Below, piece after piece: positions 28,039 to 33,441 of a stretch of 64,000 bases of DNA. Below the pieces are notes generated by a model, which saw nothing but the letters and a program-made list of their open reading frames with translations, was not told the DNA's origin and searched no databases. Position 1 is the first letter of the stretch. Each line of letters begins with the position of its first letter. The DNA is from an uncultured Planctomycetota bacterium (GTDB lineage Bacteria; Planctomycetota; Phycisphaerae; Tepidisphaerales; Tepidisphaeraceae): assembly GCA_963841915.1 (NCBI GenBank), contig CAWJEN010000006.1, positions 768,001-832,000 of the forward strand. Direction: 5' to 3'. The translations under genes and the position numbers were made by a program.

Positions 28039-29061
28039 TTAGATCAGAAACAGCAGCCCGGCAATAAGCAGCGTTGACGCTCCGATCGCCACGCCGACAG
28101 CCGTCCGCGTCGAATGGCCGGATTGCTTGAGCGCCAGCCAGTCGACCGGTCCTGCCAGGAATAGTCCGACGAGCGCGAGGCTGATTGGCCAGTCGGAGCT
28201 GCCTTCGGTCGCACCTGCCGTGTCCGCGGCCGCCACGACGACGCGGGGCGGGGCGTCAAGCCTCACAGGTGCCGTCTCGAAGAATCTCAGGCTGCCTTGT
28301 TCTACCTCGCGATGCCAGGGTGCATCGCTTTCGGGTTGCCCTTCGATGATCCATCTGCCGCCACCTTCATCATCGACGGCACGGCGAAGCGGCCCCAGCC
28401 CGGCATCGTTCATCAGCGACGCCAGCGGCGACTCGATGGCCGAGGGCACGGGATCACCCGAAAGCCAAAGGGTCAATTGCCCGCCGCCTCGCACCCGTTC
28501 GGCAATGGCGGCCTGCACATCGACTGGTAGCCGCGTCAGATTGATGTCAGCCAGGATCAACTCGTCCAGAGCGGCGTAGGCCTCTGCCTCACGCGGCAAC
28601 AGGTCCGGTGGCATCCGCGTGGTGGTCGCCCCCTGAACCGTCGGCAGCTCGCCTCCCACCACGACGGCAAGCGGATCGACATCCAGCAGCAAGTTGACCG
28701 AAAACACGTTCGGCCGCACCGGCTCGGCAGGCCACCGAACCAGCGTCTTATCAGTCTCTGCGTCGGCGATCCGCAGATTTGTAGCCCACGCGTCGACGTC
28801 CAAAGGCAACGTCATAAGAAACGTCTGCCGGCCAGGATTGACAACCGCCTGCTCTCGGAGAACGAGGGATGGCTCGTTTGGCTGCGGAACGACCCACTCC
28901 AGCTTGACCGCACGTCGCTCCGTCGACTTGATCGTCACCGCAGCCGGATGGGCAAGGCCGGGGCGAATGAGGTCGTTCCAGCCGAGATCGACAGCGACGG
29001 TGATTCCACCGGCAGCGGGAGCGGCGAGGAGAAGAAGCACGATCCACGCAAGCCGACGCAC
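28039..29061 (-). CDS. Hypothetical exported/membrane-anchored protein
   Basis: Signal peptide MRRLAWIVLLLLAAPAAG from GTG 29061; two C-terminal TMs. Confidence 0.65.
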   Translation of the reverse strand: MRRLAWIVLLLLAAPAAGGITVAVDLGWNDLIRPGLAHPAAVTIKSTERRAVKLEWVVPQPNEPSLVLREQAVVNPGRQTFLMTLPLDVDAWATNLRIADAETDKTLVRWPAEPVRPNVFSVNLLLDVDPLAVVVGGELPTVQGATTTRMPPDLLPREAEAYAALDELILADINLTRLPVDVQAAIAERVRGGGQLTLWLSGDPVPSAIESPLASLMNDAGLGPLRRAVDDEGGGRWIIEGQPESDAPWHREVEQGSLRFFETAPVRLDAPPRVVVAAADTAGATEGSSDWPISLALVGLFLAGPVDWLALKQSGHSTRTAVGVAIGASTLLIAGLLFLI

Positions 29062-29142
29062 GACAGGAGCATAACGCGGACGCACTTGATTCGCTTCCCG
29101 GCGTCTCGAACACTTGCGGTGCCCTTGAAGCACTCGGTTCCC

Positions 29143-29448
29143 ATGCTCCCGCGGACGCTCGTCTTCGCTGCCGTCGTTTTGACGGTCTGTTGCGTCGATG
29201 GTGGCGTGCTTCGGCAGGGTGTGGTCCTGCGGGCGGCGCAGGTGTCGGCTGAGCAACAACGTCCGCGTGCGGAGGTCCGCCGCTACGCCCGCCCGACGCG
29301 GCAGGCGGTTCGCCCGACCGCGATTGCGTGGGCGGATCAACGGCCGTGTGTCGCAAGCTCGGTCGAGGTCGACGCTGTTGCGCCTGAGACTTTGGTCGGT
29401 GCAGCCTTATCGTTTGCGGAATTGCGGATGCCGCCGCCGATGGCGTGA
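29143..29448 (+). CDS. Candidate secA leader / translation-arrest peptide (SecM analogue)
   Basis: 101 aa; hydrophobic N-terminus MLPRTLVFAAVVLTVCC; C-terminus AELRMPPPMA; ends 99 nt upstream of secA on the same strand. Confidence 0.55.
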   Translation: MLPRTLVFAAVVLTVCCVDGGVLRQGVVLRAAQVSAEQQRPRAEVRRYARPTRQAVRPTAIAWADQRPCVASSVEVDAVAPETLVGAALSFAELRMPPPMA

Positions 29449-29547
29449 TGTGGCGTCTGTCTCCTCTTGTCTCCATATCACGCTCCGCAGCGGCCGCCTT
29501 CGGGTGGACGCTGTCGTCCGCACCGCACATCGCTTTCCGCACCTCCC

Positions 29548-33441
<3,894 letters not shown>

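Follow-up and report, generated by a model that had tools for sequence, protein, structure and literature searches.

The closest described relative of the locus analyzed here is uA_LPPP, a class of upstream open reading frames (uORFs) found before secA in Phycisphaerales, UBA1161, and WQYP01 (Fujiwara, Tsuji, Yoshida, Takada, and Chiba 2024, Nat Commun 15:2711, PMC10987492). In that paper the class is defined by a predicted signal and by LPPP or XPPP among the final 15 residues, and the set comprises 52 sequences, 45 of them with LPPP, of which 50 were kept. Order UBA1161 has been renamed Tepidisphaerales, according to PMC11131199. Arrest of a uA_LPPP homolog was measured with reporters carrying residues 33-115, without residues 1-32, that run into lacZ. 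The arrested fraction was 1 in the B. subtilis PURE system and the in vivo index 22.4; on E. coli ribosomes the stall was modest in vitro (0.51), with none in vivo (1.59), and the in vitro E. coli stall is suspected by the authors to be an artefact of the absence of EF-P. Toeprinting, on one 115-residue construct only, put the P-site at Pro112, the second proline of L110PPP; arrest is weakened by Leu and Pro substitutions in the motif. Induction of a downstream gene, by way of a hairpin, was shown for an RGPP peptide, not for uA_LPPP (all PMC10987492).

The window, a 64,000-nucleotide stretch of DNA analyzed as a whole, carries a secA gene directly preceded by a co-oriented uORF that, by translation, runs on the forward strand from ATG 29143 to TGA 29446-29448 and encodes 101 amino acids. 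The N-terminal end of the peptide reads MLPRTLVFAAVVLTVCC and its C-terminal end ELRMPPPMA, and a gap of 99 nt separates the stop codon from the secA ATG at 29548. The preliminary description had placed this 101-codon ORF 5' of secA inside a longer ORF call, which we find to span 28948-29448 (166 aa); the hydrophobic N-terminus and the ...LRMPPPMA* C-terminus that it reported are likewise present, the latter encoded by ATG CCG CCG CCG at 29428-29439. The spacer that it called low-complexity is not so in the formal sense, for although Ala, Val, and Arg make up 35 of its 71 residues, no 12-residue window reaches an entropy of 2.2. The features of the locus are as follows.

28039..29061, reverse strand: divergent gene of 340 aa, probably starting at GTG 29061; context only, outside the system
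29143..29448, forward strand: uORF of 101 aa, assigned by translation, conservation, and profile search as a putative uA_LPPP-class leader peptide, MPPP variant
29158..29196, forward strand: signal-like segment, hydrophobic over residues 6-18 (highest Kyte-Doolittle mean for 11 residues, 2.96; within modelled helix 4-20; in all 36 complete family members)
29197..29427, forward strand: unstructured spacer of variable sequence; hydrophobic window and predicted stall codon lie 81 residues apart here, 75-82 in the family
29415..29428, forward strand: UGCGGA, present twice in the tail of the uORF, with predicted pairing to the region of the secA start (p ~0.5-0.6 for 29415-29421, ~0.35 for 29423-29428)
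29428..29439, forward strand: motif M96-P97-P98-P99 (PPP invariant in 35/35 aligned sequences, each proline being encoded by any of the four Pro codons across the family)
29443..29483, forward strand: 11-bp stem predicted across the stop codon of the uORF (29443-29453 paired to 29473-29483), its loop rich in C/U
29449..29547, forward strand: 99-nt pyrimidine-rich spacer without a Shine-Dalgarno (SD) sequence, with a predicted UUCG hairpin at 29494-29507
29535..29541, forward strand: UUCCGCA, at -13 to -7 relative to the secA AUG, to which the tail of the uORF is predicted to pair
29548..33441, forward strand: secA, 1297 aa, the presumed regulated gene (above the cut-offs of TIGR00963 and NF009538)

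The assignment of the uORF start codon to ATG 29143 is uncertain on sequence grounds. In-frame GTG 29119 and TTG 29125 are other possible starts, and in three relatives of the same genus the uORF starts 5-6 codons earlier relative to the hydrophobic stretch; a database protein 67% identical to the window's peptide (P0034) has the same start Met and also ends in MPPP. Taking the 166-aa call itself as the gene was rejected, since the extension overlaps the divergent gene and the starts of relatives cluster 4-12 codons before the hydrophobic window. The possibility that the uORF is the shadow of an antisense ORF was rejected as well: a match to the divergent neighbor adjoins secA in only 5 of 37 family loci, its own locus included, while the uORF does so in all 37. 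An AlphaFold model of the peptide, built with 35 homologs, contains a helix at residues 4-20 and an unstructured remainder, with no folded domain predicted (pTM 0.23). By inspection, the hydrophobic segment has no canonical lipobox. Searches of the peptide against Pfam and NCBIfam returned no match, a look-up of sequencing runs listed none, the exact protein is absent from a 15-billion collection, and a family profile search found it to be single-copy in its own genome (next best E 0.085).

The SecA protein of this locus has a long insertion after about residue 880, outside the stretches best matched by the NCBIfam models; Phycisphaerae SecAs in the accessible part of the PMC10987492 table are comparably long. 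A second SecA-like frame of 733 aa lies at G000:C6:1679064-1679399 and is present also in most relatives. The divergent gene at 28039-29061 (reverse strand) has a signal-like N-terminus and a hydrophobic C-terminus, and no Pfam or NCBIfam match. Its start lies only ~80 nt from that of the uORF, so the two promoters have to lie very close together or extend into coding sequence; a sigma-70 promoter scan returned 0 sites, and no terminator-like site was found on the forward strand between uORF and secA. The genome encodes a full rho gene on contig C5, and a second, partial Rho-like match at G000:C6:1239446-1240417 (forward strand, E 5.6e-109) falls below the cut-off.

On its sequence features, the uORF is almost certainly a member of uA_LPPP. 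Like that class it lies directly before secA in class Phycisphaerae and carries an xPPP motif among its final 15 residues (MPPP, residues 96-99 of 101), preceded by a spacer of more than 30 residues (81 here) and by a putatively signal-like stretch. It is a small ORF (<300 aa) with no assigned function, its C-terminal motif is conserved among homologs in 37/37 genomes, and its N-terminal segment is a conserved, signal-like hydrophobic helix by Kyte-Doolittle analysis and the AlphaFold model. The host order also agrees: the family is Tepidisphaeraceae by NCBI label, the uORF of one member (G022) reading identically to a protein labeled Tepidisphaeraceae bacterium (P0005), and UBA1161 is Tepidisphaerales. 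The preliminary description mentioned LPPP-ending uORFs in surveys, and these are the published class (PMC10987492). Its reading of the uORF as an arrest-peptide leader stands on conservation and on the published homolog experiments; the class has already been published from the same lineage, and the uORF is for that reason not a discovery. In a literature search that covered work outside subscription papers, only the 2024 paper names uA_LPPP.

To examine conservation, secA was located in 61 genomes and upstream DNA was taken from 60 (all but G053), in which we sought a co-oriented frame ending no more than 450 nt from secA with xPPP in its last 15 residues. A uORF with a hydrophobic N-terminus and this motif precedes secA in 37/37 family genomes (33 LPPP, 3 MPPP, 1 IPPP), a count that includes the unpublished G006 (36/36 without it) and G013, whose N-terminus is cut by a contig end. 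Elsewhere in the class, outside this family, a hydrophobic xPPP uORF is present at 4 of 23 loci and two more end in LSPP or LAPP, with blanks among the 23 unreliable for G046, G055, and G057, where the secA start maps poorly. Named loci of the Phycisphaerales type pass in 23 of 25 cases (22 LPPP, 1 RPPP), the remaining 2 ending in LSPP, as against 2 of 55 named loci of other groups. As background, an upstream xPPP frame accompanies 47 of the 1,633 long ORFs of the window's genome, and 4 of 1,633, this locus among them, when the hydrophobic filter is applied. A conserved uORF with a hydrophobic N-terminus and C-terminal (L/M)PPP, for which the preliminary description proposed to test relatives, is found across the family, once as IPPP, and in most Phycisphaerales-type loci.

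Beneath this conserved layout, the peptides themselves are divergent. Identity to the window's peptide is 12-35% among the 35 aligned sequences, and at the position preceding the invariant PPP the family uses four Leu codons, as it uses every Pro codon at each proline; synonymous codons thus vary under an invariant motif, which places selection on the peptide. The distance from hydrophobic window to predicted stall codon is 75-82 residues in the 36 complete members (sd 1.7), and 75-98 residues in the 23 Phycisphaerales-type loci. One to five residues follow the PPP (two in 26/37), Arg stands at -1 of xPPP in 28/37 family members where Phycisphaerales members mostly have Asp or Asn, and the gap between uORF and secA ranges from 55 to 287 nt. 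In a SecA tree of 36 sequences (rows without 280 SecA residues were left out), the five genus members form one clade with support 0.98; the inner genus branches are unsupported (0.43-0.67), and no direction of change between L and M is therefore claimed. An MPPP uORF also occurs in another family of the class, at L038 (G049):611-961, so Met before PPP is not confined to the window's genus. Motif variants appear in signal-bearing secA uORFs (L074, L079, L039 (G040), L040 (G058), and L084), with LSPP at three loci, LAPP at one, and RPPP at one; LSPP is absent from the accessible part of the PMC10987492 secA table. The sequences of the LSPP and LAPP variants suggest that the first proline is not strictly required, and the natural M/I-PPP and LSPP variants mark substitutions that the stall may tolerate.

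By analogy with the studied homolog, we consider it likely that the window's uORF stalls the ribosome in its own host, and Pro98 (29434-29436) is the predicted P-site codon, after the toeprinted proline. Generic polyproline pausing is an inadequate explanation for such a stall. The ranking of polyproline contexts is reportedly based on Starosta-type data. Among E. coli contexts, LPPP falls with the weak and RPPP with the strong (PMC4176338). EF-P is encoded in the window's genome and LPPP is a weak context, yet the family keeps L, M, or I before PPP, which makes a specific contact between nascent chain and tunnel the more likely basis of arrest.

Folding predictions connect the arrest codons with the start of secA. 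The fold of 29400-29570 is better than that of shuffled sequences (z = -2.6), and the ensemble contains two alternative pairings, UGCGGAA at 29415-29421 with 29535-29541 (p ~0.5-0.6) or UGCGGA at 29423-29428 with 29536-29541 (p ~0.35). The 16S anti-SD is intact, yet the secA start has no SD sequence; SD-like words occur near the start in 18% of 1,254 long ORFs, versus 12% further upstream. A stall was mimicked by forcing a 30-nt footprint around Pro98 to be unpaired and computing the cost of opening secA positions -18 to +6. At this locus the cost drops from 6.5 to 4.0 kcal/mol, a gain of 2.5 kcal/mol; among 275 of 301 control gene pairs, whose ORF starts are crude first-ATG guesses, 9% gain at least as much. 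Gains in the five genus members are 1.0-3.6, and in each of the five the native tail outperforms every one of 7 swapped tails. Family-wide, in kin that are not independent of one another, the median gain is 0.45 kcal/mol with 11/37 above 1, and the native tail lies above the swap mean in 19/34 (Wilcoxon p 0.019; three long-spacer loci left out). With a two-ribosome footprint, the native tail exceeds the swap mean in 20/34 (p 0.01), and this locus ranks within the top 7% when set against 174 of the 301 controls. Of the five genus members, all but G001 still have a native tail that outdoes each of its 4 swaps. Pairing partners differ between genus members, the five genus spacers align poorly with no alignable shared structure, and no 6-mer occurs in more than 11 of the 37 spacers. 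The first 45 nt after the uORF stop have a pyrimidine fraction of 0.67 here and a family median of 0.62, compared to 0.51 in a control of 301 spacers from one genome, 2% of which reach 0.67. Taken as a model, the folding predictions, weak across the family, are suggestive of a possible RNA switch at the secA start.

On balance, we find it rather probable that the uORF is a leader of secA that likely stalls its own ribosome at xPPP and probably serves as a secretion monitor, raising SecA when export is slow. Conservation suggests that the uORF is translated and that its hydrophobic N-terminus would engage the Sec machinery. The ribosome would then stall with Pro98, the second proline, in the P-site, as the homolog does on B. 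subtilis ribosomes, through a sequence-specific contact needing a hydrophobic residue before PPP rather than through EF-P-sensitive polyproline pausing. Pulling by SecA/SecYEG would release the stall, as in SecM and VemP, and by this analogy we infer a force-sensing monitor that controls secA. Where the stall is long-lived, the folding prediction has the ribosome covering ~29419-29449, which would break the pairing of the uORF tail with the region just before the secA AUG and permit initiation on the SD-less secA. Counting against this reading are the absence of a stall by the homolog in E. coli cells, given that EF-P is encoded in the window's genome too, and the weak RNA coupling across the family.

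Other explanations place the function of the uORF elsewhere. Tethering of mRNA at the translocon is a role of SecM, and a peptide here that stalls and tethers its mRNA in the same manner, with SecA made beside SecYEG or at a steady basal level and with no switch at the start site, would suit the retention of the peptide anatomy in 37/37 genomes while predicted start opening is near zero in about half, as well as gaps to secA that vary from 55 to 287 nt. We regard this as unlikely, as the family-wide opening effect exceeds controls and a hairpin mediates induction of the gene downstream of a related arrest peptide (PMC10987492). The stall could instead govern access of Rho to the pyrimidine-rich spacer and so act on secA transcription. 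A stalled ribosome, however, would reach no further than the stop codon, so it is not evident that it would mask the tract; pairing with the G-rich tail of the uORF accounts for the C-richness just as well, and the pyrimidine control was drawn from one genome only. Despite the pyrimidine-rich 45 nt (0.67 here versus 0.51 in the control) and the presence of Rho, we consider transcriptional control of this kind quite improbable.

The invariance of just the three prolines would also be expected of a leader that senses EF-P activity or the supply of prolyl-tRNA by generic PPP pausing and not secretion, and the stalling of the homolog in E. coli only in vitro, without EF-P, fits this too (PMC10987492). 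Such a sensor would have no need for a signal segment at a fixed distance, its generic context would be weak for LPPP and strong for RPPP (PMC4176338), and the homolog stalls in B. subtilis cells (PMC10987492); for these reasons it too is judged quite improbable. That the uORF encodes a small exported protein with a separate function, and has no regulatory stall in the native host, is barely credible: no fold is predicted for the mature part, whose identity is 12-35%, only the signal and the final few residues are conserved, and the uORF stays tied to secA while other neighbors change. These points weigh against its signal-like N-terminus and the fact that arrest of the homolog was seen on foreign ribosomes only (PMC10987492).

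A leader that probably stalls at xPPP and monitors secretion is the reading we retain, and for the genus we add a narrower version of it as a tentative and somewhat doubtful proposal. In this genus a force-sensing SecA monitor may operate without an SD sequence, UGCGGA in the arrest codons pairing with the C-rich stretch before the AUG, and the 75-82-residue spacer serving as a ruler for Sec engagement. If true, this would be a new form of monitor coupling and a test case of an EF-P-resistant polyproline stall. At this locus the predicted RNA pairing is concrete enough for testing the induction of secA by uA_LPPP stalling.

Separate from this family, signal-bearing ORFs ending in FQRPPP stand before a secA gene in 5 of 39 Acidobacteria-labeled loci.

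L095:998-1387, L120:989-1363, L111:608-985, L127:564-833, L097:1127-1417, and L146: FQRPPP ORFs, Acidobacteria-labeled

The ORF in L097 is without an in-frame signal, and two loci have a small gene between the ORF and secA. The family is present as one copy in three genomes, as two nearby copies in one, and is absent from a fifth. Against Pfam the ORFs match nothing below E 0.09. The PMC10987492 secA table, in its accessible part, does not contain QRPPP, and a literature search on QRPPP found nothing. From their sequences, the FQRPPP ORFs are a candidate uncatalogued arrest peptide.

The leaders of the RQH/RAPP family, ApdA, ApdP, ApcA, VemP, and MifM are comparable to the window's uORF in lying before sec or yidC genes and in combining a localization signal with a C-terminal arrest motif, and differ from it in their motifs and lineages. 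None of RAPP, RGPP, HAPP, QAPP, or RAPG occurs in the window's uORF, whose C-terminus carries R-M-P-P-P; the R-L/M-P-P of its family is only superficially like RAPP, and PMC10987492 treats LPPP as unrelated. Within uA_LPPP, the window's peptide is distinguished by Met in place of Leu, as all 5 'MPPP' matches in the accessible part of the published secA table fall in SecA and none in a uORF. Its family also differs from the published class in the tail, which is mostly F-x-F-R-L-PPP, and in the end of the signal, which is mostly ALCADR. A single UBA1161 row, which by eye resembles the G008/G025/P0029 subgroup, stands among the 50 rows of that table (rows, not genomes screened), and the leader is found here in every Tepidisphaeraceae genome examined (37/37), far above that single row. 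SecM, the secA monitor of Enterobacterales, shares the position and the layout of signal, spacer, and proline-containing C-terminal stall. The window's peptide has xPPP and not RAGP, with no sequence relationship to SecM seen in Pfam or NCBIfam, and its secA start has no SD sequence; release by force is established for SecM, whereas for uA_LPPP it is drawn from SecM and VemP. By this analogy the window's uORF probably shares the logic of SecM in inducing secA. To the published class it adds the MPPP variant, a family-wide presence, a narrow spacer, and a predicted SD-less pairing.
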